From Bilabrum cf. latius (lineage: Eukaryota), in NCBI GenBank assembly GCA_965178125.1, contig OZ237746.1, forward strand, positions 1,116,001-1,180,000: a stretch of DNA of 64,000 nucleotides, written 5' to 3'. The notes beneath the pieces are model-generated. The model saw only the letters and a program-made list of their open reading frames with translations. It was not told where the DNA came from and did not search any database. The position numbers and the translations under genes were made by a program. Shown piece by piece: positions 88 to 64,000 of this stretch. Position 1 is the first letter of the stretch, and each line of letters opens with the position of its first letter.

Positions 88-3000
88 ATGGAGGCCTACA
101 CTACCATCAAAGTGCTGGGCCGTGGAAGCTTTGGCTAGGCGGTGCTAGTGGAACGCAAGGATGACAGGGTGAGCGTGCTCAAATCTCGAGTCGAGCCTTG
201 AACCGCCTTACGCTGCATCATACCGGTTGCATCAGCACACAAGCAGTATCATTTGTGCGGTCAGCTTTGCTCATGAGCTACGCACCGGTCATTCGCCAGG
301 TTTTATCCCGTTTGGGCCGCCACACGCAGTCGAGGCATGTGATCAAGCAGATTAACGTGACCAGGATGACACCCAAGGAGAAAAGCGAGGTGCGAAACGA
401 AGTCTCAGTATTGAGCCGATTACGAGTGAGAGACAGGTTGCGCGAAGTATCCTTGCTGGTGCCTGATTGGCGCGTGCTTTCCCGTCGAGCTTCGAAGAAG
501 CCCCACTGTTCGCATTGCTTGGGCCGCCGTGTGCTGCTTCCGCTGTCGCAGTGCCCCAATATTGTCGGTTATGTGGATAGCTTCATGCACCGCGGGTCGT
601 TGTGCATCGTGATGGAGTACGCGGACGGCGGCGACCTCGAGAAGATCATCAAGTCCCGCCGCGGCCGCCTCATCTCAGAGTCCAAGATCCTGGACTGGTT
701 CATCCAGCTGTGCCTCGCGCTCAAGTACGTCCACAACCGTAAGGTGCTGCACCGCGACCTAAAGCCGGCGAACATTATGATGACGAGCAAGGGCATGGTC
801 AAGCTGGGCGACTTTGGCATCGCCAAGATGCTCGACAGCACCGCCGCGCTGGCCGCCACCGCCACGGGGACCCCTTACTACGTGAGATAAGAGTTGGTTG
901 TGTGTTTGAACCATTTATTTGGATTGGATGTGGGGGGGGGTTGAGATGGATACAAGAAGGCGATGCAGTGTTTCTGCTCCTGCCCGCGGCCCCTGATGAT
1001 CCGTCTCGCTCGTCCCCCTCTCTCCTCTCCTCTCCTCGCGCGCAGCTGTCCCCGGAGATATGCCGAGAAGCCAAGTACAACAACAAGTCCGACATTTGGT
1101 CCATTGGCTGCATCCTGTACGAGATGTGCACGCTCAAGCACCCCTTCGAGGCCCGCAACATGAAGGGTCTCGTGAGGGCCATCCTGAGAGGGAGGTACGC
1201 GCCCATCGCCTCGGGTTATTCCAAGGGCCTCTCCGAGATCATCGCCTCCTGCCTCAGCCAGGACCCCAGGAGGAGGCCCAGGGTGGACCGCATCCTGCAG
1301 CACCCCCTCCTGCTCAAGCGGATGGAGGCCTACGTGGCGCGGCACGAGGGGGTCAAGGACGAGCTATCCCACACTGCGCTGCACGGGGTGCACTTCAAGC
1401 AGCTGCCCGTGTTTGCCCCGGGGAGGGAGGCACGGAAAGCCATGGAGCGGGCCGCGGCGGAGAAGAAGGACGGGGGCAGGGGGGCGTAGCGCAGCGGGAG
1501 CGGGAGTAGGGCGGGGACAGGGGCGGGCCCTTCCTCCCTGGCTCGGGCACCCGCGGCCGCCCCTGCCCCTGCCCCCGCGCGGGGGCACGGGCACGGCCGA
1601 AGGGCACCCTCGGGCCCGCGAGCGGGGGCTGGGGCAGGGGCCGGGCCAGGGTACGCGCACGCGCGTGCACCATCGAGGGCCGGCGCCGCGGGGGCAGCCG
1701 CCCAGGTGCCGCCTCGCTCCCGGGCTGACCGGGACAGAGACAGGGGCAGGGGCAGGGCGGGGACAGGGGCAGGGGCAGGGGCCGGCGGCTATGCTCGCGC
1801 GCGACCGGGCCCTGGGTCTCGGCCGTCCTCCCGCGGCAGCAGGGGCTCTGCCAGGAGCGGCTCGCGGGACTCGAGGGCGGCGCACGACCGGCTGCGGGAG
1901 CGGGCGCTGGCGCAGGCCGCACGTCTGCGTGAGGCCAACAGGGCGGCGGACGCGAAGGTGAGGGCCGCGGAGGAGGCCAGGAGAGCCGCCGCGGCGAGGC
2001 TCAAGGCAGAGGTCGCGGCGGCCAAGGCAGCGCCGCCGCCGCCGGCCCTCCGCGTGGGCGGCAGCGGGGCAGGGGAGAAGCCCACGGACGGCGTGCAGGA
2101 ATACCTGCGGCGCAGGCGGGGGGAACAGAGGTCCGGGTCAGGTGCAGGATCTGGTGCAGGGAACAACAGGGAGACCAGCGAGGCGCTGCAGGCGGCCAGG
2201 GACGCTGTGGCGGCGGCGGCCAAGGCCATGCGGAGACAGGCCACCGCCGCGCCGCCCCCGCTGCCGCCTCCCGCCGTTGTGGCTGCTGGGCGCGGGCGGG
2301 CCCAGCCGCAGCCCAGCGGTGCCATCCGTCTGGCGGCCGCGCCTCCCGGTCGCAGGAGTACCAGCGGCGGCAGCGGGAGCGCTGCGGCTGGATTGTCGAC
2401 TGTCGGGGCACCCCCCCTCCCCCTCCATCGCGATACCGGTGCCGGTGCGGGCGCGGGTGCGGGCCTGGGTGCAGCCATGTCTCCAGCGGCCAGGGCGCGA
2501 AGGGCCGTGCTCGGGGACAAGGACAGGGACAAGGACAAGAAGGGACAGGCTCCCATCGCTCGCAAGCTCGACTACGGTGGTGGCTCAGGCTCAGGCTCAG
2601 GGTCGGCCCCCGTGAGCACGCGAAGCAGCGGGAGCCAGGGTGGGGGCGAGGGCGAGGGCAGGATCCGGGGACCCACCCGGGCTCCTCCTCGGCTGCAAGC
2701 AGCGGGGGCAGCAGCGGCGCCACCCGCCGGCTCCCCCGCTGCCCGGAACTTGAGGCAGCTGCAGCTGGGGGCTGCTGCGGAGAGCGAGCAGGAGGCGCGA
2801 GCGGAGCGTGATTTCGCGGGTATGATGGTCCAGTTCCAGCAGCTGCGGGTGCAGAATCTGATGGACGGCATCAGAGAGACGGGGGAGGCCATCGGGGCGG
2901 GGGCGGGGGCGGGGGCGGATGGTGCTGGCGCGGATGGGGCGGAGGGTGGAGGGAGGGGGGGACAGGATGGAGGGAACATGCACGCGGATCGTGACGAGTG

Positions 3001-3403
3001 GATCGACTCGGACGAGGAAGAGTAGGAGGAGGAAGAGGAGGATGGTGGCGAGGACGAGGACGGGGTCGATGATTCAGGTGGGGCAGGCGATGGGGTGACA
3101 TCCAGCCGGGGAGAGGGGCAGGGGCATCGAGCATCGGGAGGGAGCGGGGGCTCTGCGTCCGGGTCCGGGTCCGGGTCCGGGTCCGGGTCCGGGTCCGGGT
3201 CGGACGACGTGGTGCGCGTACGTGCCAAGCTGCTGTCCGTGCTCAAGCTGTCCGAGTTCCTGCGGGCCTACGCGGCCGTGGCGGCTGCTCGCCAGGAGGA
3301 CGCCAAGGCGACGGCGCTCAAGGCCATGGGCGAGGACAGAGCCAGGTACGTGCCTCTGCTGCTGTGGCTGGTGGCCAGAGAGGGGGGCAGGTAGGCGTAC
3401 TGA
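88..3403 (+). CDS. NEK1: NIMA-related kinase (NEK1/3/5-like) with long low-complexity tail; exons 88-168, 330-425, 552-881, 1046-3403
   Basis: Motifs MEAYTTIKVLGRGSFG(TAG)AVLV, VIKQI, HRDLKPAN, DFG, GTPYY|LSPE and SDIWSIG. Three GTGAG..GCAG introns (169-329, 426-551, 882-1045) restore the frame. In-frame TAG at 136, 1487, 3023 and 3392; TGA stop at 3401-3403; NEK1-like C-terminal helical segment. Confidence 0.9.
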
Positions 3404-4007
3404 GGGCATACAGGCTGCTTTGGCGGGTTTGTAGGCGAGGAATGGCCCAGCCAGCAGGGGGAGTGGACTGCTTGTTGTCGTGTATAACGCGTACCTGGTC
3501 CATCGCAGATTCCACTTGGCCGTCGTTGATGTCTTCGGGGTCGGTGCATGGGTAACACAGAGGCATACCATAGTATACTGCAATGACGCCTTCTAATGTT
3601 CTCATAGAAGCCCATGCACTCCCCGATGGCATTCGCTGAGTGTCCGTGCCAACTATGAAGATCAAGATGAAAAATGGAAAGTGTCATGGCTCCTTTGTGG
3701 GACTATTTCTCAACTATTTCGCCAATCAGAACCGTGTTCCTCTTCATATTACAAGTTAATTGTACATACATTCCCAAGCTATCAATTTCATCGCTAGGTG
3801 AAGCTTTTTGATAATTGTAAAGATCAAGATAAAAATACATTTTCAGCGCGAGCCTCGAGGACGAATATCGTGGTTGTCGCGCGTATCTGGCGTGCCTGAG
3901 ACCTATCCCTCCACTCGCTCGGCGAAAACGGCTAATTGGTAATAGAAATATTCGGATCGTTCATAGTATTGTCACAATTTGAGGGCAGCACAGGCGCGTG
4001 AATAGAG

Positions 4008-7000
4008 ATGGGTGAAACGCCACACCACCAAGCAAACACCGCACGAGCACCGCTTGCGATGACCAGCTCAGGAATCATGCGTTGTTTGATTGCAGTGCTA
4101 TTAGGTGGTACGTTTCTAGCTGACAAAGGTGCTGCGCTTCCATTTTCGGCTGATACCTCGAGTCGTGCCGCGTACATTATACAGACCAAGACCACCCGCG
4201 AAGAAAACCCCGAGCCAAGATCTACCTTTGTGGAAGTGAATGGTTATGTGGTCTTCGCAGGACAGACACGACTCGGGTCAGAGGTGTGGGCGACGGACGG
4301 GGTCGAGGCGTGGATGGTGGAGGACCTCGCTCCGGGACCCGACAGCTCGACCCCGTCCGATTTCACTGTAGTGCGGGACCGGGTTTACATGGCTGCTCGA
4401 GGTGCAAGTTTGCGCACTGAGCTATTCTGGTACAACGCATCAGCCATCGGGGCCCGCGTACCATCCAACGCCACCCTCGTGCCACGCCCGCGCACCGACG
4501 CGCTGAGCACGAGCCCCAGCTACCTGTGCCGGTTTTAGGGCCTGGGTCCCGAGTCGCTGTACTTCACGGGAAGCGCAAAGCCGCTAGGGTTCTTCTTCTT
4601 TACAATGGAGCTGTACCGGTACAACGGCACGGGCCGGCCCCAGCTGGTATCCGACCTCGTGCCTGGCAGCCCTGCAGTGCAGTACCCCAAAGAGACGACT
4701 GCATTCGAGGGGCGGTTGTACTTTCTCGGCTTGGTACCAGGGAGTAGCAGCGAGGACAATGAAATAGTGTGGTGGTTCGACGGTGCGTCCCCAGTCCAGG
4801 CGTTGGGTGCGGCGGGTGCTCGCCTTCTCCCTTAGGGCTTCAGGCCGTTCGTAGCCATGCCTGGCCTGGGGCTGCTCATTGTCGGAGTAGAGGGCGATGA
4901 TGATGATGATGATGATGATGATGGCGGTGGTGATACTGGGGCTACGAATAGGAACAGCAACGGCACCATAAGCCTGTACCTGGTGCGATCCTAGCAGCAG
5001 CCTCAGGAGGCTGCCACTCCCGGCCCCCCTCCAAGCCCAGTCCGTATTTCTGAAGCGCTAGCAGAGCCCGAATGGCTGACCATGTTCAACGGCTCCATGG
5101 TGCTCCTGGGCCTTGAGAACACGTACCTGGCAGCAATGGACGTCTCCCTTTGGCTGGATGTGCGCACTGGCACTGACAATGGCACTAGAGCTGGCAATGG
5201 CACTGACTAGGGCACTAGAGCTGGCAATGGCACTGACAATGGCACTGACTAGGGCACAGGCAGCACCACGGCGGCCCTCCCCCTCCCCCCTCTCGCGCAG
5301 CCTGCCCTTCTCATCGGCAGCGAGGAGGACCCCTTCGCGCCCGCCCACCTGAGCCTCGGGCCCGGGGATGCCATGTTCATGCAGGGCTTCAGCAACAGGA
5401 CTGGAGCCGAGCTGTGGGCCTGGAACCCGGACGTGGCCCCCTTCGTGTTCCTCACCGGGGAACTAGCCTCGGGGCGGGAGGGGTCAGGTCCATGGCTCAT
5501 GCACAGGTACTGGTCTGCTCGCGCGGGGCAGGACCTGCTTCTCTTCGGTACCCGGACGTCTGGACTAATGACAGCGGGTGCGCTTTGGGCGTACAACGAG
5601 ACAGCCCGCCCCACTCCCACCCCCTCGGTCACCCCGACCACCACGCCTTCCGCCACCCCGACCTCGACCGCCTCTGCGACCCCCACTCCATCCGTCTCGC
5701 CCTCGCCAAGCACGTCAGTCTCCCCCAGCGCACTGCCGAGGTACCTGCCGCCGGGGGCTCCGGCCCACGTGCAGGTTGCGGTCGTGGGGATGCTGGGCGC
5801 GGGGGCTGGAGCCGGGCGACCGGGGACTGTTCCTGCGCTGGACACGGGGAAGCTGCGGCGAAACCTGCCCGCCTCGCTGGTGCAGGCCGCGGGCATGGAG
5901 GGCGTGAGGGGCATGCCGGCATCCGCACCTGAAGAGGCGGGTGGCGGCACGGGCGGCTGGGCCGGCCGGTTGTCTGTGCAAGGGGCAAAGCCCGACGCCG
6001 AGGCCGAGGGGCGGACGGTCGTGCTGGTGCAAGTCAGCGACGCGTGGGCTGGCGAAGTCGAAGGAGAGACGGGGCAGGGAGGCGAAGAGGACAATGGGGA
6101 ACTAGTGGTGCTGTCGGCGGAGACGACCCGGCAGCTGCTGGACGAGCGCATGCTGCTCGAGGCGGCCCGCACCGGGATCCCGACCTCGAACACGACAGCC
6201 GGCCTGGAGGTGGTGCTGGCGCTGGGCGCAGTGAGGGCGCTGCCCTGCCCGTGCTTCGAGGGGGCCTGGGTGGTGCCTTCCGCCGGTGAGCGGTGCCCCG
6301 TGGTGCGGCTGAACCCACTGGTGGCCACTCTGGTGACCGCCATCCTGGCCCTGATGGTGCCTGCCGCCGCGGGGGCGCTCTACCGGAACAACTCGCTGCC
6401 CACCTCTGGCCTTGGGGCCTTCCTGGGGGCTGGGCTGCAGGTGCTCGATTTCGTCAGCGACGCAATCTTTGTGTTCCAGCTGGCAGTAGAGAGGGGCTGC
6501 AGCACCCCCCTCCTGGTTCGGCTGGCGCTGGGGTCGATGGTGGCTGCGGTCGTGGTCAACATCGCGGGTGTGGTCTTCTTGCTGCGTGGATGGGCCGTGC
6601 CGGGGCTGAAGGTGCACCTGCAGCGGCACGCTGGGGACGTGTTCGGCGTGGCGTTTGTGTCCCTGCTCGGGGTAAAGACCATGGAGCTTCTGACCAGCCA
6701 GCTGTTCGGGAGGAGCGGCCTCAGCCTGTACTCCACCGACAGGCCGGTGGACCTGGCGAGGAAGCGGCAGCTCTCGCACCGCGTGCGGCTGCTGTCCGTG
6801 CCCCAGCTGGTGGTGGAGGACGCGGTGCAGTTCGGAGTGCAGGTGTACGTTCTGGCCGCGGGTGAGAGCTTGTTGCAGAATCTGCCGGCGCTGGTGGCCT
6901 TGTGCTTCACTGGTATGAACGTGGCTCGGCTCACGGTGAGCACGATGCTGAGCTCCGTGGGGCTGGAGGAGCTGGTGGAGCTGGCCGAGCAGCAGGTGGG

Positions 7001-7625
7001 CGAGGAAGAGGGAGTGGGAGAGGGCGGGAGCAGAGGTGAGAAACGGGAGCGGGACCAAGAGCAAAGAGGCGGGGAGCGGATCGGCAGTGTGCCAGGGCGG
7101 CGCGGGGGCGGGGGTCAAATGGGTCAGCAGTGCAGGTTCGGTCCATCGGCAGCGGCTGTCGCTGCTTCATCTTTGTCTGAAGGGATGGGACAAGGGCAAG
7201 GACAGGGGGGTAGGGAGGCGGGGGCGGAGGTCGAGCTGGGGGTTGTGTGGCCCGCGCCTCGCAAGGGGGTGGCCCAGAGCTCCCGCAGCGGACTGGAGCC
7301 TCTTGTTAGGGGTGACCGAGGAGGTGTCACCAGCAGGGGCAGCGGCTATAGCAGGAGCAGTGGCAGCAGTGGAGGGACTGTGGGCTCGGCCAGGCAAGGG
7401 GTGGACAAGCGGGACATAATAAACCCGCTGCTGGCAGCAAGTGGCGGAGTGGTTGCTGGCTCTGTGGCGGATAGAGAGGCAGCGGACGGTTTGGCTGGGA
7501 TCAATGGACCGGGGCTTGGCAACTGGGAGCAGACGGCTGCGGAGTCCATCGCTTCTAGTGGCGATGGCAGCGGTTGTCGATCTCCCGGGTCGGATCGGGG
7601 TGAGAAGCAGGCCCAGTTGTCGTGA
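4008..7625 (+). CDS. Membrane protein: signal peptide, ELWxxDGT-type repeats, P/T/S stalk, multi-pass TM domain, cytoplasmic tail (start could be the ATG at about 4059)
   Basis: One frame open apart from TAGs (4536, 4833, 4992, about 5208, about 5250). Repeats GSEVWATDG..VEDLAPG, MELYRYNGT..VSDLVPG and GAELWAWN; TPTPS stalk; hydrophobic helices with DFVSD and EDAVQ motifs; TGA stop. Confidence 0.75.
5169..5258 (+). repeat. Imperfect 12/18-nt minisatellite encoding GTDN/GTRAGN/GTDQ units with several NGT sequons
   Basis: Units ggcactgacaat, ggcactagagctggcaat and ggcactgactag. Confidence 0.8.
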
Positions 7626-7694
7626 ACAACTGCCGGGACGCAGCCTCGCGAGGCGTAATGGTATTTGATGGTACGTTTGTTGTACTGTTTGCTA

Positions 7695-9887
7695 ATGTTG
7701 GACCAACATATATAGTCCGTGCTGTTTTTCTTCTGGCGGTTCCGTGCATGGTGCGTCACCGTGGCACTGGCAGCGTGCTTGTCCACCGGTGGCACGCGGC
7801 CCTCATTGGGGTGGTCGCAGACAACCCACATGGAGGGCGAGCTTGATTGGAGCGCCTTGTCATTGGAACAGAAATACGCTTTCTATGCGATGAGCACAGT
7901 CTTGTGGGGGGCATCCCAAGTTCTCGAATAGATCCCAACACGGATGGAAGCCTACCAGCAGACCACAGTTTATTACCGCGAGAACAGCATATTTGGCAAG
8001 TATGAGGTGGATAGGACGAAGGAAAAGGTATATATGTGCAACAAGAACCCGTTGTGTATCTTGCCTGCCTGTATTGGCTGCTTGATACTTTTTGGGTGCA
8101 CGCTATTGCCTTTGGCATCAATCCTGCCGTTCATTGTACATGCAGTTCATGGGATCACCTTTGAACTTGATGTACCTGACATTGTGCGCATTGCAAGTTC
8201 AAAGCTCGACGAACGGTGTTTGGTTGGCGAAGTACTCGTATACTCGGTGCGTCAGCAGCGTGGCCGAGCATCTGGTGAGCTTGACTCTTTCGTTCGATAC
8301 AGGCCGGACAACGCGGACTCGTATGTAAAAGTGGTTTTAGAGGACAAATCATAGCTACCGCCAGGTCTAAGGGGATGCGCAAACGTCAGCTGCGTTGTGA
8401 CTGGGGCCAGCACCACTCTAGGCAAGTGGTACGGAGAGCAGCTGCTGGTGCCAAATGCAAACCAGTACCTTGGGAAGCACACATCCGACCACTTATGGCG
8501 GTACCCGATACCAATCCCCCGGAATGACGACGGAGTCGTTCGGAACATATCCCTGAGTCGACAAACGCCATGCGAAAGGCCAGACTACTCCATGCCTTGG
8601 GGAGACCGCATCAGGGATAGGCCCCGGGGATCGCGACAGGCTTCTAGACGCCTAAGTGGACTTACAAAACACGTACGGGCGCGGCAGTAGCTGGCTGATG
8701 CCCGCTGTCGGGGCGCGGTCCCGCTCCCGCGACTGACGCCACCGCCAAGGGTGCAGTCATTGGGTTTGGGCAACTTCAAGATGCCATTGCAGCTGGACTC
8801 TTCCTCAGCAGCCGTCGGTAATTCTTCCAATGGAACCTCATCCTCCCCGACCCCATCGACATCACCATCGACATCGGGTGAGCCCCTGTGCTCTCGCGCA
8901 GCATGGACCCTGGTGCCCACCCCGTGCCCTGGAGTGGCCAACTGCAGCCGGCTCACGATCAGCCTGCTCCCGCCGCAGCCGGCCAACTGCACTCCGCGCC
9001 CTTCCCCCAGTTCGTCCGCCACCCCGTCCGTGGCCCCTACCCCCAGCTCCACCCCGACCCCGACCCCGACCCCCAGCCCCTCGGGTGCAGTGCCTTGTGC
9101 GTACGTCTCATCGGGAGGAGGCTTCTGCGACGACGTCCCGGGGGCGGAGAACAACATGTGGGCCGAGCTCAAGGACCTCATGCCCCCGGCGTTCAAACTG
9201 GTGGGGGCCTCGGGGCTCCTGATGCTGTCCTTCGACACCGTACTGCTGGCTCACCTGCTGCACCGGTGGTCGGTGCAGGACCACGCCTACCGGACACAGG
9301 GCGGCCTGTGGCCAGACGCGCCCACCGCGTGTTCCCTGCGCTGGCGGGCGGCCCTGTACCTTCTGTTCCTCGGCATGGTCGTCGCTCCCCTTCTGCAGCC
9401 CGCGGACCAGGACCAGGACCAGGACCAGGACCAGGACCAGGACCAGGACGAGGAGCTGGTGCAATGGCGCTGGGAGATGGCAGCCAGGGCCCCGCAGACG
9501 TGGCCCGCGGTCGCGCGGCTGGCTCGAGCGACGCGATGGCGCGCTGCGGCCGTGGTGATCGGCATCGCGCTGATGGTGGCGGACCTGGTGTACGTGTGCA
9601 GGGCTGCCGTGCTGCACTGCGGCGAGTGCGGCAGGGCGTGTGGGGATCTCGTCGCCTGCAGGGCCTGGGCTCTGGATGGGAGGGCGAATCAGAGTGGGCC
9701 TGGTCTGTAGTAGCCGGAGGACGGCAAGGGCCAGCCGCAGACTAGCGCAGCAGTAGCACTGGAGATGCGAAGCCCAGACGGGGGTGGGCATCCCGCGCCT
9801 GCCCCCATTGGCATGCATGCGCCTGGGTCGGCTGCAAGAGCGGGATAGGGTGACCACGATACCATCAATCCGCTGACAAGGGTGTGA
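7695..9887 (+). CDS. Uncharacterised membrane protein with ectodomain, S/P/T stalk and several TM helices
   Basis: ORFs 7719, 7944, 8397 and 8751 share one frame and are joined only by TAGs (7713, 7929, 8352, 8688, 9708, 9711, 9846). Ends DTINPLTRV-TGA. Start is tentative. Confidence 0.65.
9405..9449 (+). repeat. (GACCAG)n repeat encoding (Asp-Gln)n
   Basis: Directly visible tandem hexamer. Confidence 0.9.
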
Positions 9888-10050
9888 ATGGGTAGATCAT
9901 TGTTTCCCTTGCTGCTACACGTCATGTGCAAGCGGCCACAGTTCAGTTGGTGATGAGTCACTGATGACGTTATCGTGAAGATGAAGATGCAAACAAAATC
10001 TTCGGATCCGAGACTGCACGGTCACCAGCCGCGCAAAGCGTTCATCTGCG

Positions 10051-11316
10051 ATGATCGTTGCAGGGATCTGTATCTTGCATGCCCTCTCTGTAGCGGCAGC
10101 TGGAGTGAGGAGCAGCAATGACCCAGAATCCGTCGCGTCGCGCGCGATCGAGCAAGCCATGCGGCAGCCAATCAACGGAACGCGGTTCTGGGCGTGGTCC
10201 TACGGTCCAGGGATCCAACTAGACGCCATGGAAAGAGTGCAAGATGCCTTTCCAAATCTGAACTACTCCTCGTTCGTGTCTCGCGTCTTGGATCTGTACT
10301 CGAGTCCAAACGTGCCCAACAACCTGGCTTACCAAGTCCTCCACAATGAAACAGTGCCTTGGTCGTACGCAATCGGCGACCAGATTGGTTTGTTTCCGAT
10401 TGCCTACCTAGATCGAGCCCTCAACACGCACGAGTCGCCTGTCTCTGACGATCTGTACGTTGCGACGAAGGTAGCGAGCCAGTACGTGTTTGACTGGCCC
10501 AAGACGCTGCCCGATGGCACCTTCTCCAGGACCCAGTGCTGGGAAGGCCAGACCTCTGGCAATAGCAGCGGTACGTGCCTCTGGGCCGACGACCAGTTCA
10601 TGGGGCTGACGCTGATGCTCCGGCTGGCTCGCAACGGCGTCGTGGAGGGCGCCGTGGCCCGGTCGTACCTCGAGCGAGCCATCGACATCCACCAGAACTT
10701 TGCGTTTTACCTGCAGGACCGCGGGCAGTACCCGGGGGCCTCGCCCCCAGGCAGCGGGCCGCAGGGCAGCGGGCTGTACTTCCACGGAGCCAACCTCGCG
10801 GGGGAGGGCACACCCTCGTGCTGCTTCTGGGGCCGGGCCCAGGGCTGGGGCCTCATGTCGCACGTCGAGGTGCTTTCGGCGATCGACGACCTAGACCCAG
10901 GGAACAAGCGCAGGGAACATGTGCAGGGGACGATGCGCAGGCACCTGTCGGCCCTGGCCCCGCTGCAGGGGCCCGACGGGCGGTGGCACCAGCTGGTGAA
11001 CGACTCGAGCACCTACCTCGAGACTTCCGTGTCTGCCATGGCCGTGCACGCGCTGAGCCAGGGACTCAGGCGGGGGTGGGTCCAGGAGAATTCCTTCGGC
11101 GGCGTGCTGGAGCGGGCGTGGGGCGGGCTCGCGGGCGCCGTGCTGGCCAACGGGACGGTTGAGGGCATCTGCTGCGGGACTGGCATCCAGGCCTCCCCGG
11201 GGGACTACAAGGGGAGGTCCACGGCGTATGACGAGTGCCAGCCGGGGCTGGGGAGCGTGTTCTATGCGGCCATCAGCTACGGGCAGTACCGCCGCGCGAG
11301 GGAGGAGAGGGCGTGA
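10051..11316 (+). CDS. Secreted glycoside hydrolase family 105/88 (unsaturated rhamnogalacturonyl/glucuronyl hydrolase, YteR-like)
   Basis: Signal peptide; LWADDQFMG, FWGRAQGW and QGPDGRWHQLV..YLETSVSAM match GH105 consensus motifs; intronless, no TAG, TGA stop. Confidence 0.85.
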   Translation: MIVAGICILHALSVAAAGVRSSNDPESVASRAIEQAMRQPINGTRFWAWSYGPGIQLDAMERVQDAFPNLNYSSFVSRVLDLYSSPNVPNNLAYQVLHNETVPWSYAIGDQIGLFPIAYLDRALNTHESPVSDDLYVATKVASQYVFDWPKTLPDGTFSRTQCWEGQTSGNSSGTCLWADDQFMGLTLMLRLARNGVVEGAVARSYLERAIDIHQNFAFYLQDRGQYPGASPPGSGPQGSGLYFHGANLAGEGTPSCCFWGRAQGWGLMSHVEVLSAIDDLDPGNKRREHVQGTMRRHLSALAPLQGPDGRWHQLVNDSSTYLETSVSAMAVHALSQGLRRGWVQENSFGGVLERAWGGLAGAVLANGTVEGICCGTGIQASPGDYKGRSTAYDECQPGLGSVFYAAISYGQYRRAREERA

Positions 11317-16966: not shown

Positions 16967-17065
16967 TAAACTAGCTCCGAGTATTGAAGTGGGAGCTACG
17001 CGGTCCAGCTGTTTCCCGGCGGCGGTGATGAGTGGGATCGTCGGCAGTTGCACATGGCACTTCGA

Positions 17066-41243: not shown

Positions 41244-41488
41244 TTCGATTCGATTCGATGCGATGCGATGCGATGGAGGACACGCCTGTGCGGCAGGCGT
41301 GTCCTCTGGCGGAGGAACGCACAATGACCGGGCACGATTCCGCGTGAATACAAAAGGCGCATATCTGTAATAATATTTTGTTTTGAGCAGCAAGACTGGG
41401 CGGTGCGCTGCTGTGGTGCGCCAAAAGGAGTGTGACGAGCTCCATTCGACCCAATCTTGACGCGCATTGTATTCACTCTGCTGGCGGA

Positions 41489-45320: not shown

Positions 45321-45374
45321 CTCGATCCATTTCATTGTTTTCAAGGATGCGCTCGTACAGGGTACAATGCCTCG

Positions 45375-52855: not shown

Positions 52856-53012
52856 GTGATGTATCAGCGGTCAATTTACCACTTCTGCAGGCTAGCCATC
52901 CCTTCGGAGATGGCGCTTGTGCACCACGTCTCGAAATGCAATTTTTGAATCCAACCCGGAAAAACAGAACGCGGACCATGACGTGCGAGCTGCAGTCAAG
53001 GCCTAGGCTTGG
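52856..53012. promoter_or_regulatory. Putative bidirectional promoter between EXO1 and the SLX4-CCD-like gene
   Basis: 157 bp between divergent start codons; inferred from geometry only. Confidence 0.45.
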
Positions 53013-53555: not shown

Positions 53556-53620
53556 TTATCTTCGTCCCTCGCTCCCGCCGTCCTCCTCTTCTCGGATGAC
53601 CTCTGCCTCCACCACACCTC

Positions 53621-53683
<63 letters not shown>

Positions 53684-54974
53684 CCCCGCCCTCCACGGCG
53701 GACCAGAGCATCTGCACCGTCGCGTCGTGCACGATGGACAGGTCCAGAAACCTGCCCCCGAGCAGCCGCATGGACTGCGCCCACACGCTGTTCTGGTGGA
53801 AGTACCGGTCGTGGTCATACACGTCCCCGTCCCCTTCCACACCGCCTCCACCACTGCTGCTGGACGACGACGACGGCTCCGGCCGAGGGGGCGCCTCCAG
53901 CATGGCCGGCATCAGCGCCAGGTCGCGCACAGCGTCCCCGGTTGCAACCACGCAGCCGGGCATCTCTGGGAATCCCAGCTCCACCTCCCCTCGGGGGGTC
54001 CTCGCGGCGGCCCCCGTTGCGGGGTCCCTGACCGGCTGCAGGCGCATCATGTCGCAGCCCACCACGATCTTGAAGTCCCTGGCCTGCGCGGCGCCCTCAT
54101 CCATCAGGGCACGGATCTCGGTCAGCTTGCCACCCGCGCACAGCCCGGACTTGGTGAGTCGCACGGCTCCCTCGATGGCGTCGTACGGGTGCAGGATGAC
54201 CATGCGGCCGTCCCCGAGACCGCCCTGGAACGCGTAGTTGCGCCCGATCTCGCCCAGGTCCAGCTTGGCCATCTCCGCGGCCCGCACAGGCAGCGGACGA
54301 TTGATGGCCACCGTCAGCACGTCCACGCCCCTGCCTTGGTCGGCGGAAGCGCCGCCGCCGCCGCTGCCGTCCTCGGCCTTGGTGGCCACCACGCCCAGGA
54401 CCAGCCTCACGTCCCGCGCGTAGTCCGCAGCCATGGGGTTAGCCACGATGATGGACCCCGTGCCGATGCTCTCGTCCACTTTAAGCCCCCCCTCGATGCC
54501 CTGCAGCTCGGGGAGGCCCATGTCTTCGCTCGCGAGCTGGGGCGTTGTGGTCTGGATCAGGCTGGAAGCCATCTGCAGGGCAAGCGCGCCCACGCGCATG
54601 TGCTCTCTATACTCATCGGCGGCTGCATTCGATTCATCGGATGCCGAGGCAGCTTGGGACTCGCTGCCGGCCCGTGCCAAGTCCGATTCGATCCCGAGGA
54701 CCTCGGGGTTCCGGAACGATTCGCGAAGCACCTGCGAGAGCGTCGGCAGGTCGCCGTGCCGAGCTGGTTCATAGAGGCCAACTGGCTTGAATAGCGGCTC
54801 AAGCCTGCGTGCAAGGCACCGCGTGTACGCATCGGACGAATCGCGACAAGAGGCCAAAGGCGCAGCCAGAAGCGAGCGAAAGGCCAGATTCCTGTCCATC
54901 ATTCTTGCCGTCCGCATGAGAGCGCGATACAACGACAACGAAGATACCTTTTGAGACACCTAACTCGCGCTCAT
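53556..54974 (-). CDS. DUF179/UPF0301 (AlgH/YqgE-like) domain protein with N-terminal LYR-like motif and polyQ
   Basis: GSIIVANP..YARDVRLV, INRPL, QGG..LH, DFKIVVG and WAQSMRLLGG; LYRALMRTAR near the N-terminus. The ATG at 54974 is reached through one TAG; TAA stop. Confidence 0.65.
53622..53678 (-). repeat. (CAG)19 polyglutamine tract
   Basis: (ctg)n on the + strand, in frame in the DUF179 gene. Confidence 0.95.
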
Positions 54975-55120
54975 AATGTACTTGGAGGCCTTGCAGGAGC
55001 AAATACTGTAGTTGCCGATTGCGTGAGGCATTCTAGCAGCGTGACGAGTGGACTCGGACTCGATCGGATCCGGCTCCGGCACGTTGGCGCCAAAACCGAG
55101 CGAGCACAACTCGCTTGAAA

Positions 55121-57086
55121 ATGGCTGCATCTGGAAGGAGTGCCTGCGATGCCGTGCTTGAAGCTAGGAAGAAGGATTATAAGAAGAGTATCACGAAGGA
55201 AGAATCGCGGATGAGCAGGACTTAGACGACGATTTAGATCCGGAAGAAGAAGCAGGAGGAGATGCGCGCGAAGCGCCGCCGACGAGTTGCGCCGTCTCAA
55301 CCGGCCGGATCGGCTGGCGAGGCGGGGACATCATCTGATACAAAGGGTGGTTTCTCTCACGAGATCCGCCCGGTTACCACCGGTCAACTGCCGGAGGAGA
55401 TCTAGGATGCGCACATGGGCATCTACAGATAGCGTGAGCAATCGATCGAACCAGCGTCTCGAAGCGCAGGTGCTGCCACGTTAAAGGACCATGATTTGTT
55501 GTATTAACAACTTGAACATTCCGCTCTACTCCGCTCGCTTTCCTTTGCCTTCGCGTTGTGCTTATGCCGCAGACTTGCTGGGCGAAGACCCGAAGACGCA
55601 GCTGGAGGCTGCATTTTGCGTGCGGAAGCTGCTCTCTAGGGAATCAAGGCCTCCCACAGAGGCATTCCTTAGGACGGGCGTGCTTCGCCGCGTGGTGGAG
55701 CTCATGCAGCACACGAGCGAGGCCCGCATGCAGTTCGAGTGCGCCTGGATCCTGACCAACATCGCCTCCTCGGAGCACACGAGCGTCGTGGTGGAAGCGG
55801 GGGCCATCCCCGTGCTGGCGCACCTGCTCAGAAGCGCAAACGTGGACGTCAGGGAACAGTGCATCTGGTGCCTGGGCAACGTGGCGGGCGACGGGCCCCG
55901 CCTCCGTGACGCCGTGCTCGCCACCGAGCACACGGTGCCCAACATCATCCTCAACATCCAGAACTCGCCCAGGCCCTCCGTGCAGAGGAACGCCGTCTGG
56001 GCACTCTCCAACATGGCCCGCTTCAAGCCGGCGCCCTCCCCCCGGGCCGTCCTCGCCGCCGCAAAGGCCTTCTCGCACCTGGTCATGACCACCTCGGACC
56101 AGGAGGTGCTCGTGGACAGCTGCTGGGGCCTGCAGTACGTCACTGACGCGGGGCCCGAGCTGGTGGATCTCGTGGCTAGGTCTGGCGTGCTGCCCCGGCT
56201 GGTTGGGCTCATGGCGGAGGGCTCCAAGTCGCTGGGCACTCCGGCGGTTCGGTGCGTGGGGAACATCGTCGGTGGAGACGACAGCACGACGGACCGGGCC
56301 ATCGAGGCGGGTATCCTCGAGGCGCTGGGCCGCATGCTGGACTCGCCCAGCAGGAACCACAGGAGGGAGGCCGCATGGGCGCTGTCCAACGTGGCGGCGG
56401 GGACCAAGACCCAGATCGCCAGGCTGTGCAGCACCCCTGGCCTGCTCGCCAAGCTGGTGGAGCGCATGGCCACGGACGACCAGCTGGTGCAGAACGAGGC
56501 GTGCTGGACCATCTGCAACGTGGCCGCCTCGGGCAGCCCCAGCGACGTGCTGTGCCTGGCGCAGGAGGGGGCCATCCGGTCCCTGTGCCTGATGCTCACC
56601 AAGCGGCTGCATAAGGTCCTGCACATCTCGATCGGGGGTCTCACCGCCATCTTCAAGCTGGGCAAGGACAGGGAGGCCAAGGGGCTCTCACCGGCCTTTG
56701 ACGATTTCTACGCCGAGTTCGAGGAGGCCCAGGGGGTGGAGGTCATGGAGGAGCTGCAGGACCTCGATGACGAGGAGCTGGCCAAGAAGGTGGACAAGTT
56801 CGCGGACGAGTTCCTGTGCGTGGAGGACGAGGAAGGCGAGGACGGCATGGGGATGGGAGGGGGCGACGAGAACAACGTGGCCTAGGGCGGACAGGCGTTC
56901 TCCTTCGGGATCACCTCGGGGGCGGCGGCCGCTGCCTCGATGAAGCCGCCGCTGGGGAGCAGCGCTGGGGGAGGGGACGGGTGGGGCAGCTTCGGGCAGG
57001 CGGCCTCGGCTGGCAACACGGCTAGCGCCACTGCCGGCGGAGAGACGGGCGGCTGGGGCGATTTCTCGGGGGCCTCGTGGAACTGA
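55121..57086 (+). CDS. KPNA: Importin subunit alpha; exons 55121-55433 and 55573-57086
   Basis: IBB domain RKKDYKK..RT(TAG)TTI(TAG)IRKKKQEE..KRR; ARM repeats (FECAWILTNIAS, WCLGNVAGD, WALSN); phase-1 intron 55434-55572; TGA stop. Confidence 0.93.
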
Positions 57087-57368: not shown

Positions 57369-59399
57369 TCAGGCCATCCCTGCAAACCTGCCAGGGCTGA
57401 AGGGGCCCAGATCGACCGCCCTGCTCTTCCCCTCCAGCACCAGCTCGGCCACCGCGCGTCCAGTGGCCGGTGAGAGCAAGATGCCCCAGCACGAGTGCCC
57501 CGCGGCCACGATCACCTGCTCCAGGCCGGGCACCCTGCCCAGCACCGGCATGGAGTCGGGTGTGCCGGGGAGGTAGCAAGCCTGCCTGGCTTCCAGCCCT
57601 GCAACCGCCCAGGACTCGGCCAGCGTCCCGGCCGCCACGCGCACGGAATGTGCCCAGCCGGGGTCCGTCTGCACTGCCCCTGCGCACGCTGGTAGCGGCT
57701 CGGCATCGGGGCCCGCCACCGCGTACACGGTCCCGTCGGGCCTCGGGTACACCTCGATGGAGCCGAGGCGGGGGCGGGTCTTGGGCCAGCTGTTGGGACT
57801 GTCTTCGTCCTTCTCCACCCGCTTCTCCTTCTCCACACGGACCTTCCGTTCCTTGCCCGGGCCGTCTGCTGCGGCGCTTGTTCCCTCTGCTCTGCGCCGC
57901 TTGGGCTCCGGAGCCCCGCCTGCATCGCCTGCATCCTCCTCCTCTGCACCTAGGGACCTGGAGGAGGGCGATGATGCCGATGCTGGCGTACTGCTTGCGA
58001 CTCCGCGTGAGAGTGGCGGCCCTTTGACCACTCCTCGCTTGCGGGCTGATAGCGACACAATCCCTTGCCGCTCTGCACCGCTGGGCGCCCCGGCCCCTGC
58101 CCCTGCACTGGGCTCGTCAGAGAGGGAATTTCGCTGCTTCTCTGCAGCCCCGTGCCCCGTTGCATCTTTGGCATGCAACATGGCCTCCTCAGCGGCTGCC
58201 TCTGCCCTTCGATCTGGGTCATAACCCACGAACAGCGCGCAGGGCGGATCCACGGGCACGGAGGGCCGCAGCACCACGCTGTGGCAGCGAGCCCCGTCCA
58301 CTGGAAGTCGGTAGGAGGAACTTCTTGAGGAACTACTTGGGGACCGCGTGGTCGATCCACCCCCAGTCCCAGTACCACTGCCGGTGCCAGCGCCAGTGGT
58401 GGACCCAGAGCCCAGCATTCCCTTCACCCAGCCCTCCGCCCCTCCCGTCCATGGCCCCATGGCCAGCACGACATGCCTGCACTTGAGCTGAATCGTGGGC
58501 GCCTCGCGCGGGTAAATGCATTCTGCAGAGGCCTCCGCCCGTGCTATCGCTCTACTGCCACTGCCAGTGGCAGCCTCAGGTGCGAAAGGGTCCTGCAGCG
58601 GGGAAGGGGCCATCGGCTCGCGGGAGTGGGGGCCAGGGCTCTCCCCCACTGCCCCTGGCTTCGCGCCCGCTGCTGAGCCTTTGTCCTACCGACGGGGTGG
58701 ACCGGTGGTATGCTCCGGCGCCCCTGCGCGGCTGGCGTCTGGGGGCAGCGATGGCGAGAGCGTGATACGCACGGACTGCTGCCCAGCATCGCCGCTGGAT
58801 ACTCGCTCCAACCCGGAGCACCGTGCTCGAAGAAATGTCACACCTCTGGACGCGGACGCTTGAGCCAAGAATCGTGTGTAGAGCCTAGGATGCACCTGTG
58901 CAGTGTCTATGCTACCGCTGGCACACATCGGGCTGGAGCCGAAGTGGCGTGCATCCAGCCACGGGTACGCTTCCCGGGTCTCTTCTGCGCTGAGAACAGC
59001 GTCGCGGCGCGCTGAGGGGCTCAAAGTGTCTACTGTAGGCGTATCACGTTCCCGATGCGCCCTTGCGATCTTCGTCTGACCTCCCCGATCGGCCGCTAGG
59101 CTCCTCGTGTTCAGTGTTCTGTAGTGTATGTCAAGACCAAACTCTTTGGACGCAACAGCAGCAAGCTCTGGGAACATGGCGTAGCTAGATCTAGCTAAAG
59201 CCTCCCGCGGATCTCCATCACACCACGACTGCGCCAAGAATCCGCCCGAGCGGCCGCTCGCAGCAGCTGCGATCTCGCACGGTTCCACCACGCATATCCT
59301 ACATTTCGGGTCCTTCTAGGACAAGAAGTAAGAGCATGAGCACCCAATCACCCCTGCACCCACTATCACTACATCGTATTCGAGCAAAGGGCCTGCCAT
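57369..59399 (-). CDS. FAD-dependent oxidoreductase (DAO family, Tda3-like)
   Basis: DVVIVGAGVIGCSCSYFLS(TAG)K, AAAASGRSGGFLA, TAQVHP, VVLAMGPW, EVYPRPDG, QACYLP and AAGHSCWGILLSPATG; TAGs at 59316 and 58686; TGA stop. Confidence 0.88.
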
Positions 59400-59545
59400 A
59401 GTGCAGCGGTGTACTCGTAGGAGACCCTGGACGTGGATTGCCCATGGTGCTCAGGCTCCGGGTCCGGGTCCCGACATCAGTGCAGGACGAATATTGGCGT
59501 GTCATTCTAGAGCCTACACTTGTGCTGCAATAGCTGAAAAAGTAT

Positions 59546-62500
59546 TCATGTGCAACCCACCAGGTCCGACCCAGCAGCCACGGAGCGAATGGTCGCCGAC
59601 AGGCTGGTGCCCGGCAGCCTCGTGTTGAGGGTCCCGCGGCACCCCAGCGCCCCGCAGCGGCAAGGGGCCACGCCCTCCCCCCGCGGGAACGAGTAGTCGT
59701 ACGTCAGCTCCTCGCCCACTGCGATGTCTCGCGAGGCATAGAAAAACATCCGGCCCAGCCGCACGGGGGGACGAGGAGGGCATGCCCCTGTCCCACCGGC
59801 AGGGAGCTAGCCCTAGCCCTAGCCCTAGCCCTAGTTCCTGCCCACCTGCAGCCGCAGCCGCAGCCGAGGGCTCACAGGGGACAGCGCCCGGACGCCTTCT
59901 TCCTCGGTCACCAGCTGGGGAGGCAGCAGCTCGCATTCTGACTCCGGGTCGTGACCTGGAGGCGGCTCGAACGAGGCCCCGCTGGGAGCGTCGATGAGCC
60001 TGTTGCCCGCGTAGCCTGACACAGCAGAGGCAGGGGCAGGGGCAGAGGCAGCTGCCCGCTGGCCCTCTGCCTGCATCCATGCCTCCTCAACCTCGTGGTC
60101 GGACAGTGTGTTGATGGCGTAGCAGTTCGGCTCGCAGCTGTGGTTGAGGTACCTGGCCGTGCACCCCGCCGTGGTGGCGTCGATCACCGCATCTGGTCCT
60201 GCCCTGAACATGTAGTCAGCCATGCCGTGAGCCTCGTACTCCCGCTGCCGCTTGGCCGCTTCTGCGTTGGAGACCACCTGCCCCTTGTACTCCGCGATCA
60301 CGTCGTTCTTCTAGATGTCCCTTGTGGCGAACAGGCCCAGCCCGTCGATGCGGGAAGCGCCCACTCTCAGGTGGCGCAGGTTCCACTGGGCGCGCCTCTG
60401 CGAGCAAACAAGACAAGGAAAGCACAGGAACCAAGGACAGAGGATGAAGAAATCGAGGAGGAGGCAGCGATGGAGCCAGAGACGCAGTTGGGATGATGCA
60501 GGGGAAGGCGTCAAAGGGCCACTGAGGGAGAAACAGAGAAACAGCGAGACACGATCGTTCCGACTCACCGCAAGAAGCGACACTGGCGTGAATTTTTCAG
60601 GGGCAGCCGCCCCCCTGCGGTGCCGCACGAAGTCCACCACCACAGGCCCGTAGTCCGGCAGCCTGGTGGACGCGAACTGCTCCAGCCGAGGGTGGATGCG
60701 GCTGCTGGCCTCCCCGCTTAGGGGGGCGCTGGCGTGCTGCAGGAATGTGGGAGCGTCGTTCACGTCGTGCGACGGACCCGATGAGCTACCTCCTTCTTGC
60801 ACCGCGCAGTCGCTGTGCATTTCCTCCCTGATGCGAGCCGCGAGCAGCGGCAGCCTGGATTGGAGCCTCGCCATCTCGGCGGCCTGGCCCGCGGGCATCG
60901 TCCTGCTCGACACTGCCCCGCCGCCGCTCGTGCCCCCGGGCGGCCGCATGCTCGCCAGAAGGGCCTCCCGCTGCGACTCGGCCACGGCTGCCAGCGCGTC
61001 TGCCTCCAGCTGGTCGAGTCCGTCCTCGCCGACGGGGAACTACGTGCCCTTGCCTTCTGTCGCAGAGCCACGTTCCTCGCTTCTCACTGTGCCTCCGTGT
61101 CCGCCTGCCTCTTCGGCGTGGGCTCGAGAGAAACACGCCTGTGCCTGAGCATACCCTCTCAGTGCGGCCTCTTCCGCCTCCGCCAATCCCACCACCAAGT
61201 CCTCCTCGGCGGGTGCAGCGAACTGCAGCATGGCCTCCAGACGGACGTCCCCCGCGGCGAGGAGCGGGAGGTTGGTTGCGGCCGTGGAAGGACCCCCGTG
61301 ATGCCCCTGCTGCAGGCCCCGTGCGAGCAGGGCGCTGACGGGGCGCTGAGGGCCGTGCAGCAGGATACAATTCACTGCAGCGTCGTGGAGCTGCAGCGCA
61401 GACGGGCCATCCGCATCGCCCCACAGCCCCGTTCGATAGTTCCTCCCGAGGGCGAGCGCGTAGCTGGCGACGGGGGGCGTGTCTGGGCCAATGGCGTGCT
61501 TCTGGTCGGGGGAGCCTGGCGCCGGCGGTCCTCCGCTGGACCCCTTATTATCGTCACCACCGTCAGCAGCACCTTGGCCCTGGCCCTGGCCCCTCAAGAT
61601 GTACTGCGTCCCTTTCGGCCCCAGCACCATGCAAAGGAAGGGACTGGACAGGAGAATCCGGGCTGCGCTGCGCTGCTGCTCGACCCCGCTGTCGCCAGCA
61701 CGGCTGTCCTCGCCATCACCAGCTGCTGACCCCCCGTCATCTTCTGCGTCCAGCTTGCATGCGGCAGCCACCGCTTGCATGCATCCCTCCCACCCGCCCG
61801 CGAGGTCACAAGCCACGGCAGGGGCGACATCGCCCAGCACGCGACCCCCATGCACCCGATCCGCAGCCAGCATCAGCACGTCGTGCCGAACCAGGTCCCG
61901 GAGGCAGCGGGCCGTGCCCAACCACGACCACGCGGGCGGCACAGCACCCTCGGCACCCTCTCCATGCGCCACCTTCCCCTTCCACTGCCTCTGCAGCCAA
62001 GCAAATTGCTCCCCCCACAGCTGCCGCACCGCCGCACACCTGGCACACGCCAGCCGGGCCGACCGCACGGCCTGCTGCCGCAAGAGCACAGCGGCCGATA
62101 CGCTCGACTGCACCAGCTGCCCCGTCGGCAGCATGGCCGTCACCGCTAGACCCTCCTCGCACACGTGGTGGTGCCCGTGCAGGCAGGACTCGCAGGTCAC
62201 GGGGGCCCCCGAGGCGAGGAAACACCCCATGTGGGGGTCTCTCGCCGCGCTGGGGGTACGGGACAGCAGCACGAGCTGCCCCGGGTTCATGTCGTTGGCG
62301 GGCAGGCCACGCAAGAAGGGAAGCAAGTGCTGCCCGGCGATCCGACCCAGCAGCTCCAGAGCCTGCGACTGAACGTCCTGTTGCTGCGAGCCACTGCTGC
62401 TTCCCGATGACACTGACGTATCGGCGCTACTACCACCACCACCGCCACCACCTGTGTCCCATCTCTGGACAAGTGCCCCGGCCAGGGCACCCACGGTGGT

Positions 62501-64000
62501 GACGGGCGTGGCCGAGATTGACGCAGCCCCTTTCCTTACCACGGCCAGCGGGAACTGCTGCTGCAGGTGCTGTGGTAGCACGGTGCGCCTGGGGCCGGGC
62601 TTGAGGGAGGGCCCCCCATCCCTGATGAGCTTTTCCACCGCTGCCATAGCCACCGCGTCGTTGCGCGAGTCGAAGCTGTGCAAGCCCGTCGCGGTACGGA
62701 TCGGGTTGCTTGCATCTCTCAGGTCGGTGGCAGCCTCCTGCAGCAGGGACCGAGTCAGGCGGGCCATCTGCGCAAGGCCGTGCGTCAGGCGCTCCGACCG
62801 ACCCGTCAATGTCGATGCGCTGCCGCTGGACGGGGCCGGAGACCCGCCTCCGCGCAGCACCGGGAGGTGACAGGCGCCGAATCGGGCGGCATGCTCCATC
62901 CACAGCTGGCCCAGCAGCGAATCGTCGGCCGGAGTGCGGACGATCGCGCGCGATAGGGCGCCTCCTGGGAGACTACTAGCATCGGTGCCCGGGCCGGCCC
63001 CACGTGCGAGCGCGGTGCCCTATCGCATGCAGCTGACCGCAGGCGCCGAGACGATCCGCAGGCAGCTCTGGCCAGCAACCCGAGGCTCTCGCCCGCACCT
63101 GACCATGGCGCGCAGCAGCCCGGCATGGGAGTGCCTCGGGTCACTGGCCTCGCGCTGCACCGCGCGCTCGCCCAGGCCCGACCACACATGGGGTACACCT
63201 GTCCCGATAGACCCAGAGTCGGCGATCTGCCCGACTCCAACCGCACCGGATGGGCTGCCCCCCTCGCTGCCGGCCGCAATGATCCCCCTCAGCCCCGCCT
63301 CGGTCCCGTCCCAGCCAGGGAGACTCAAGGGCACCTCTGGTTCCATGCCTACGTGCAGCCAGGTGCTGGTCGAAGAGACCTACCCACTGCTTGAAGCAGC
63401 GCCGTTGAGATGCCGTGGCACCCCTGCCTTTCCCGCGGTGGACCCATGCAGTCCTTGAGCATCATCATCTTCTTCTCCTTGTTCGTCCTCTTCGCTGTCC
63501 TGGCTGTTCTCATCATCGTCCGCCCATTCGGCTCGTTTCTTCGCTTCGGCAATCGCCGCCACGGCCACTTCTTGGACATCAGCACCCAAGTACGGCAGCC
63601 CCTCCAGCTCCTTGACGGCAGAAACATAGCCTAGCGTGCCTTGGTCGCGATTGGGGTCATAGGGCAGAGGCTGGCCCCCTGCACGGGCCCCACCCAGATG
63701 TCCACGCGATTGACTTGTTCCCAGCGGCGGCTGGTCGCTCGTTGAGTCGGACGTGGCCGATCCCCGGTCCCATTCCACGGAGTCTCCACCTTCCCCTGCA
63801 TCGTCCTGGTTCTCGTCCCCATCTTCGTCCGATGCCAGCTGCGCGCGTCGCCGAACCGGCCGTGAGCTCCGGCGCAGGCCGGTGGGCTGCACTGGGGACA
63901 CTTCAGCGGAGTCTGCGGTGCTGGAGGCCGCTGCCGACGCGACAGACCCTGTCGCCGAAGGACTCCTTCCATCTCCCTTTCCTCTTCCCCCCGCCCCCGC
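59546..64000 (-). CDS. SET1/Trithorax-class histone lysine methyltransferase (5' end outside the window); probable intron 60568-60398
   Basis: [11 protein letters not shown](TAG)[37 protein letters not shown] and post-[11 protein letters not shown]. One frame open to the window edge through 9 TAGs; TGA stop. Confidence 0.85.
59807..59833 (-). repeat. (TAG GGC)n coding repeat, read as QGQGQGQGQ
   Basis: Five in-frame TAGs spaced 6 nt apart inside the SET-domain insertion. Confidence 0.9.

Follow-up and report, generated by a model that had tools for sequence, protein, structure and literature searches.

A nuclear code with UAG as a probable glutamine codon and UAA and UGA as stops in a GC-rich eukaryote

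The 64-kb stretch of contig OZ237746.1 studied here (assembly GCA_965178125.1, Bilabrum cf. latius, positions 1,116,001 to 1,180,000; called the window below, with positions counted from its first letter) very probably follows a nuclear genetic code in which UAG specifies glutamine and UAA and UGA remain stops, an assignment equal to that of NCBI table 15. Such a code had been predicted for the window from its letters alone, and the central claims of that original prediction were borne out by independent lines of evidence. That UAG is translated is supported by homology that continues across TAG, by a test of the sequence flanking each stop triplet, and by the retention of TAG in spliced contigs; that it is read as glutamine, by a near-invariant alignment column in a PIGZ-like mannosyltransferase; and that TAA and TGA still terminate, by a TAA aligned with the TGA of a paralogue and by the lack of in-frame TAA where many would be expected. 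The window would then belong to the nuclear genome of a eukaryote with high GC and few introns, in which UAG serves as an ordinary glutamine codon, UGA as the main terminator and UAA as a minor one.

TAG codons within coding sequence

The window has a GC content of 65% overall and 62-71% throughout, its eukaryotic genes are densely packed on both strands, and its + strand holds more TGA triplets (653) than TAG (360) or TAA (98). Our analysis was based on 18 long stop-to-stop frames delimited by TAA and TGA only, which are frames and not finished gene models; they total 18,256 codons, and 13 of them contain Pfam domains, the other five being without a Pfam family. In these frames we found 87 in-frame TAG codons, 80 of which lie downstream of the first ATG of the frame, and 17 of the 18 frames have at least one, the exception being a GH88 (unsaturated glucuronyl hydrolase) frame at 9985-11316 on the + strand, with no TAG among 24 glutamine codons. 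Read as glutamine, TAG makes up about 11% of the glutamine codons of the window. The earlier estimate of about 100 TAG codons in 19 of 23 genes was thus of the right order, although our count is lower. The absence of internal TAA and TGA, on which the prediction had also drawn, does hold for the 18 frames, but it does so by construction, and being circular it carries no independent weight. TAG apparently tends to be absent where conservation or expression is highest (GH88, uS8 and Sof1) and to be enriched in low-complexity regions.

A comparison of open reading frame (ORF) lengths between codes was rejected as a test, since it fails to discriminate: the standard code gives 6 frames of at least 600 amino acids, and treating TAG, TGA or TAA as sense gives 22, 39 and 6, respectively, because dropping TGA, the commonest stop triplet in this DNA of 65% GC, lengthens frames more. 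More informative was a codon-usage model fitted to one half of the window and applied to the other half. With this cross-validated model we scored the 40 codons on either side of each stop triplet, on both strands, for an in-frame coding appearance, and both flanks looked coding for 28 of 672 TAG triplets, compared with 4 of 1238 TGA and 2 of 212 TAA (odds ratio 10.5, Fisher p = 1.1e-9). TAG alone among the stop triplets therefore sits within coding sequence.

Homology is found on both sides of TAG in four conserved domains, those of SET, EXO1, DAO and PIGZ proteins. The SET1/KMT2-like SET-domain methyltransferase gene (59546-64000, - strand), which runs off the window, has nine TAG codons and a TGA stop, and one of the nine (60311-60313) lies in the catalytic domain itself, in the motif ATRDI[TAG]KNDVI; the Pfam SET match (1220-1297) spans this site, and the alignment to the KMT2C and KMT2D chains of the Protein Data Bank (PDB) continues across it. 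In the EXO1 gene (XPG_N and XPG_I domains; 48833-52870, - strand; 11 TAG, TGA stop) the TAG at 52547-52549 falls where the XPG_N region ends and is crossed by the alignment to the PDB structure of human EXO1 (query residues 6-199). A DAO-family FAD oxidoreductase (57369-59450, - strand; two TAG, TGA stop) carries a TAG in its FAD-binding N-terminal fold (59316-59318, - strand), within the Pfam DAO match (26-219) and within the alignment to glycine oxidase 7cyx. The fourth gene encodes the PIGZ-like Glyco_transf_22 mannosyltransferase (38256-41243, + strand), with four TAG codons and a TGA stop.

The same pattern of codon use is found in a relative of the window organism. Scanning metagenome contigs with the C-terminal part of the PIGZ protein led to three contigs (L001-L003) of 55-59% GC, which hold orthologues of the PI3/PI4-kinase-like (PI4K), PIGZ and RhoGAP genes at about 45% protein identity to the window. 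Over 3079 codons the relative has 56 CAG, 35 CAA, 26 TAG, no TAA and no TGA, its stops being TGA, so that TAG amounts to about 22% of its glutamine codons. Both the window PI4K gene (21175-29652, + strand), a frame of 2825 codons, and its orthologue in L001, a frame of 1677 codons, have 13 TAG and end in TGA. Two TGA triplets do occur in the relative within the weakly aligned 5' part of the match to RhoGAP (41436-45320 in the window, + strand, two TAG), a part that we infer to be leader sequence. Synteny with L001 is only partial: between its PI4K and PIGZ orthologues L001 has a 687-codon frame (5363-7426, - strand) with six TAG and a weak SBP_bac_3 match, and that position is occupied in the window by two paralogues and a hydrolase.

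Termination at TGA and TAA

The 18 frames end in 15 TGA and 3 TAA, and with the uS8 ribosomal protein and Sof1 genes added, 20 genes give 17 TGA and 3 TAA. The prediction had counted 19 TGA and 4 TAA; the counts differ, but only TGA and TAA are needed as stops in either case, and none of the 20 genes requires TAG to terminate. The most direct evidence on TAA comes from two tandem paralogues on the + strand, neither with a Pfam family, g30341 (30341-33265; four TAG, TAA stop) and g33406 (33406-36162; five TAG, TGA stop). Their proteins are identical at 478 of 833 aligned positions, and the TAA that ends the first (33263-33265) aligns exactly with the TGA that ends the second (36160-36162). In-frame TAA was seen in neither lineage. 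If TAA meant glutamine, the CAA:CAG ratios of 0.22 and 0.63 would predict about 19 for the window and about 16 for the relative, respectively. A code in which both UAA and UAG specify glutamine (the type of NCBI table 6) was rejected, since TAA is absent from 18,256 + 3,079 codons in frame and ends three genes.

These results leave the question of whether UAG might be ambiguous, read as glutamine inside genes yet ending some of them in a context-dependent manner, after the example of Condylostoma, karyorelicts and Blastocrithidia UAA. Several observations point that way and weigh against a purely sense UAG. TAG stands 2 codons before the stop in the NEK-like kinase gene (TAG at 3392; gene of two exons, 743-3403, + strand, three TAG), 12 codons before it in g7659, a frame without a Pfam family (TAG at 9846; 7659-9887, + strand, seven TAG), and 24 codons before it in an AIF-like Pyr_redox_2 gene (TAG at 18327; 18250-20007, - strand, two TAG), the stop being TGA in these three cases. 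The corresponding distances are 58 codons in a leucine-rich repeat (LRR) protein gene (45321-48707, + strand; eight TAG, TAA stop) and 66 in the importin-alpha gene (Arm repeats; 55485-57086, + strand; TGA stop), whose one TAG, at 56883, is in the C-terminal tail. UAG may thus occasionally terminate too, and contigs cannot show the true 3' ends of transcripts. However, the four frames with a TAG no more than 60 codons from their end match the approximately 4.5 expected under a uniform TAG density, and all 20 genes can end at TGA or TAA. Moreover, the C-termini that can be checked end in TGA or TAA at conserved positions: those of the paralogue pair, those of PI4K and PIGZ, which coincide between the window and the relative and end in TGA in both, and that of uS8 (approximately 13281-13870, + strand, one intron), whose coding part has no TAG and stops at TGA. 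We consider an ambiguous UAG unlikely.

The two paralogues, of about 920-970 codons, are also unusual in that long blocks of complete protein identity alternate with unrelated stretches, which suggests recent gene conversion or exon-wise homogenisation between them.

The amino acid specified by UAG

The most informative site on what UAG specifies is the TAG at 38388-38390 (+ strand) in the PIGZ/SMP3-type mannosyltransferase motif YIHPDEIF[TAG]SEE. An exhaustive HMMER search returned 934 homologues, and among the best 150 of the 934, 144 span the site, with glutamine in 143 and serine in one. Glutamine is also present at this site in four metagenomic loci that use the standard code (L010, L011, L015 and L016), and the relative has TAG at the identical position of the motif. 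A PDB search with the PIGZ protein found no relative of solved structure.

Exchanges between CAG and TAG point to the same residue. Within a conserved block of the paralogues, pairwise alignment sets the TAG at 35128-35130 (+ strand) of g33406 against the CAG at 32132-32134 of g30341, with MHRAVSRQAVTGETW in g30341 opposite MHRAVSG[TAG]VIKGETW in g33406, and both paralogues keep the TAG of RVLDLCE[TAG]GRSSGLD, a block in which they do not differ (32546-32548 and 35554-35556, + strand). In an EXO1 microsatellite (49862-49882, - strand), CAG TCC is followed by three repeats of TAG TCC, which would be read QSQSQSQS. Another microsatellite, (GGC TAG)x5, lies in an insert of the SET domain (59807-59836, - strand) and would be read (Gly-Gln)5; the 18 frames contain five further (G-Q)n runs with n of at least 3 that are spelled with CAG or CAA, and no (G-L), (G-E), (G-K), (G-Y) or (G-W) runs.

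A sense UAG with another meaning, Leu, Ser or, following the example of further ciliates, Glu, Lys or Tyr, has to be weighed against these sites, and some of the data do not favour glutamine. A single TAG falls on a near-invariant column, most of the others being in low-complexity or variable regions that are uninformative on the residue, and at the domain sites other than PIGZ, which are variable columns, the PDB chains show E (in the KMT2C and KMT2D chains), N and E/K opposite TAG. In the comparison of the window with the relative, glutamine stands opposite TAG at only 3 of 25 ungapped sites and, where flank identity is at least 50%, at 2 of 5, the others being S, A and L; for the window TAGs taken separately, Leu is opposite three of nine and glutamine opposite none. 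On the other hand, both sites with 75% flank identity, the two best-conserved orthologous contexts, pair a TAG of the relative with a glutamine of the window, and the overall pairing, which is what would be expected at such divergence, lends modest support to glutamine. CTG and CTA, the Leu codons opposite TAG, are closer to CAG (one step) than to TAG (two steps), and Leu was rejected as the meaning of TAG on the strength of the glutamine column and the CAG/TAG exchanges. The replacement of CAG by TAG inside the QS microsatellite, and the GQ runs that match (G-TAG)5 where no G-L, G-E, G-K or G-Y runs do, likewise argue against the other residues, as does the PIGZ column at which both lineages keep TAG. 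Pyrrolysine was also rejected, since 17 of 18 unrelated genes contain TAG and the codon coincides with a glutamine column, the Pyl genes themselves not having been searched for. Where columns are informative, which is at few sites, TAG matches glutamine in homologues, so that on comparative grounds the residue is most probably glutamine and a different one is distinctly unlikely.

Introns and the mature transcript

The prediction had named editing, splicing and assembly error as ways in which it could fail, and contigs from public runs bear on all three. Two GT-AG introns can be placed by comparison with them. One, of 139 nt, lies in the importin-alpha gene (55434-55572, + strand, ends GTGAGC..CCGCAG) and is missing from contigs of runs X5 and X7, which have the joint 55433>55573; the other, of 171 nt, lies in the SET gene (60398-60568, - strand, ends GTGAGT..TCGCAG), is in frame, contains no TAG and is missing from an X5 contig with the joint 60397>60569. 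A 7-kb contig of run X6 is unspliced through both introns. The evidence from the runs consists of contigs and not raw reads, covers a subset of the TAG sites, and comes from four runs of three studies. The spliced X5 contig (record 5) takes in the TAGs at 60313 and 61042 and does not differ from the window, contigs of X7 and X8 also cover these two sites with no differences, and a further X5 contig (record 6), spanning 62018-64000, includes the TAGs at 63022 and 63382, again with no differences. The sole base difference in the 15 kb compared is a G>A at 58152, which is not a TAG site.

The intron-less X5 and X7 contigs are cDNA-like, and from the joints alone we infer that they are RNA-derived. 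UAG would then be retained in the mature mRNA at the covered sites, neither spliced out nor edited. Two points speak against this interpretation: none of the runs is on record as RNA, X5 even being marked "probably DNA", and strains without those two introns would give the same joints. Even if the runs are DNA, their contigs match the window, and assembly error is therefore ruled out.

The proposal that TAG never reaches the ribosome as UAG, owing to hidden introns, U-to-C editing, or sequencing or assembly errors, can appeal to the unrecorded RNA status of the runs and to the fact that some frames do include introns that stay open, as at 60398-60568. It is opposed by the intron-less contigs that keep TAG without a difference and by the agreement of all four runs with the window. 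In addition, TAG stands in the middle of short conserved motifs where it cannot be intronic, introns would also bring in TGA and frame shifts, and in PIGZ the relative carries TAG at the corresponding position. We regard this proposal as largely refuted and very improbable. Standard-code pseudogenes or leaky read-through of UAG are hardly credible: nothing speaks for them beyond the in-frame TAG itself, whereas only one stop of the three occurs in frame even though the DNA holds 1.8 times as many TGA triplets as TAG, 17 of the 18 frames are affected and a single gene can hold as many as 13 TAG, too many for leaky read-through to traverse, the genes hit include essential ones present in single copy (EXO1, the SET1-like gene and PIGZ), the coding signal persists past TAG, and the pattern is kept in a relative at about 45% identity.

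Phylogenetic placement and the decoding apparatus

The Sof1/DCAF13 gene (11538-12956, - strand; coding part without TAG, TGA stop) was used to place the organism. Its best named matches are from brown algae, oomycetes, Phaeomonas and Chrysoparadoxa at 39-45% identity, and one further protein matches at 86%. In a maximum-likelihood (ML) tree of 31 rows, which is a quick search of one gene on a best-match sample with no alveolate row, the window falls with the 86% protein and further rows in a clade (SH-aLRT 98) that otherwise consists of stramenopile rows. It lies outside the oomycetes and the ochrophytes, and fungi, plants and Bigelowiella are on the other side of the tree. This grouping hints weakly at a stramenopile lineage. 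A comparison of Sof1 with a protein atlas resolved only to "Eukaryota", and uS8 exon 2 is too conserved for placement, its best named matches ranging from Mucorales to Cafeteria and Hondaea at 81-85%. The suggestion that the organism is neither a ciliate nor a fornicate, and that its code may have arisen independently, is therefore plausible from the stramenopile grouping of Sof1, with the reservation that this is one gene in a quick tree.

Neither ARAGORN nor Rfam found a tRNA gene in the window or in L001-L003, and eRF1 is encoded in neither the window nor these contigs. By analogy with other reassigned lineages (PMC5304391), decoding would be by a tRNA-Gln(CUA), one mutation away from tRNA-Gln(CUG), which would pair with UAG and not with UAA; the glutaminyl-tRNA synthetase (GlnRS) would have to accept this tRNA; and the N-domain of eRF1 would presumably have lost or weakened its recognition of G at the third position of the stop codon. 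New TAG codons would arise mostly from CAG by C>T at weakly constrained sites, and would therefore pile up in low-complexity sequence and be scarce in conserved and highly expressed genes. A broader proposal, to which we give an even chance, is that UAG was reassigned to glutamine independently and clade-wide in deep-branching stramenopiles, as the first non-standard nuclear code there, shared by at least two members about 45% identical in protein and with genomes of 57-65% GC, and that it arose via ambiguous decoding. Ambiguous decoding would be the route rather than codon capture because AT pressure cannot clear TAG stops beforehand at 57-65% GC.

Relation to known codes

Published accounts describe several ways in which UAG has changed its meaning. 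UAG alone is reassigned to glutamine in two phyllopharyngean lineages, Protocruzia tuzeti and Iotanema spirale (PMC11687900), to leucine in a rhizarian (exLh) and some ciliates, and to serine in Scotinosphaera (PMC5304391, PMC11687900). A CUA anticodon reads UAG and not UAA, which makes a change of UAG alone mechanistically easy, and the eRF1 of Iotanema has a T32G substitution in its GTS motif (PMC5304391). Both UAA and UAG (UAR) specify glutamine, as in table 6, in many ciliates, hexamitid diplomonads, some ulvophytes, Streblomastix and Amoeboaphelidium (PMC11687900). Code 15, in which TAG specifies glutamine and the other two stops are kept, is described in crAss-like and other phages (PMC9523058).

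One close parallel in these accounts is Iotanema spirale, a fornicate, which likewise has a nuclear UAG read as glutamine outside the ciliates, with UAA and UGA as stops (PMC5304391), and for which the route would be the same as that proposed here, a tRNA-Gln(CUA) derived from tRNA-Gln(CUG) combined with a changed eRF1. Iotanema is, however, of an unrelated lineage, being an anaerobic metamonad known from a transcriptome, whereas the window has 65% GC, TGA as the main stop and a Sof1 that falls among stramenopiles. The phyllopharyngeans and Protocruzia tuzeti also changed UAG alone to glutamine with UAA still a stop (PMC11687900); these are ciliates with macronuclear genomes, whereas the window is multi-gene chromosomal DNA with GT-AG introns of 139-171 nt, and its Sof1 groups with stramenopile and not alveolate rows in a tree that had no alveolate row. 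With the table 6 codes, the window would share the change of a stop to glutamine via a suppressor-like tRNA-Gln, but in those codes UAA and UAG were reassigned together, whereas the window has TAA at the ends of genes and none in frame. The uncoupling of UAG from UAA is shared with exLh, the ciliates that use leucine and Scotinosphaera, which differ in the residue, most probably glutamine here. Unlike the code-15 phages, in which the suppressor tRNA is phage-borne and the host uses the standard code (PMC9523058), the window represents a cellular nuclear code.

In the literature that we searched, which did not extend to most subscription journals or to supplementary taxon lists, we found no UAG reassignment in a stramenopile or in another GC-rich non-ciliate. 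The code itself is of a known kind, and it appears to be the lineage that is new. Stop-codon reassignments are often linked to AT pressure, and a GC-rich setting is unusual. Another origin outside the ciliates, in GC-rich DNA, would bear both on the usual coupling of UAG with UAA and on the need for AT pressure, and nuclear splits of the two codons are known from few lineages in the accounts cited (PMC11687900, PMC5304391).

There are also practical consequences. Gene callers that assume the standard code will truncate or split the proteins of this lineage, and genomes and metagenome bins of the clade need to be read with TAG as glutamine. Three public proteins related to genes of the window are short: P0001 lacks everything before residue 323 of the PIGZ query and looks truncated, as does P0151, with 328 amino acids of the approximately 470 of Sof1, and P0285 is uS8 exon 2 alone. 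Either standard-code gene calling or short contigs could be the cause. The organism may be in culture, given the public DNA and RNA-like runs of several near-identical strains. If it is, its tRNA-Gln(CUA), GlnRS and eRF1 would make up a natural amber-suppressing eukaryotic system, and, if the code is as proposed, a tractable one in which to study how eRF1 and GlnRS adapt.

Other features of the window

Two further frames have no Pfam family, one at 4002-7625 (+ strand, five TAG) and one at 53556-55190 (- strand, two TAG, TAA stop), and the latter includes a run of about 20 glutamines at approximately 53600-53700 that reads as poly-Leu on the other strand. A Suc_Fer-like gene lies at 14153-17254 (- strand, five TAG), the alpha/beta hydrolase next to the paralogues is at 36355-38238 (- strand, four TAG), and the GH88 gene appears to be intronless. 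At approximately 54349-54371 there is a short G/C-rich segment at which many contigs of all four compared runs break or diverge and false long-range joints begin; this is probably a simple repeat of the dispersed kind that interrupts assemblies. In the PI4K-like gene, at approximately 25,600-25,900, the unit (Gly-Ala) is repeated well over 50 times.

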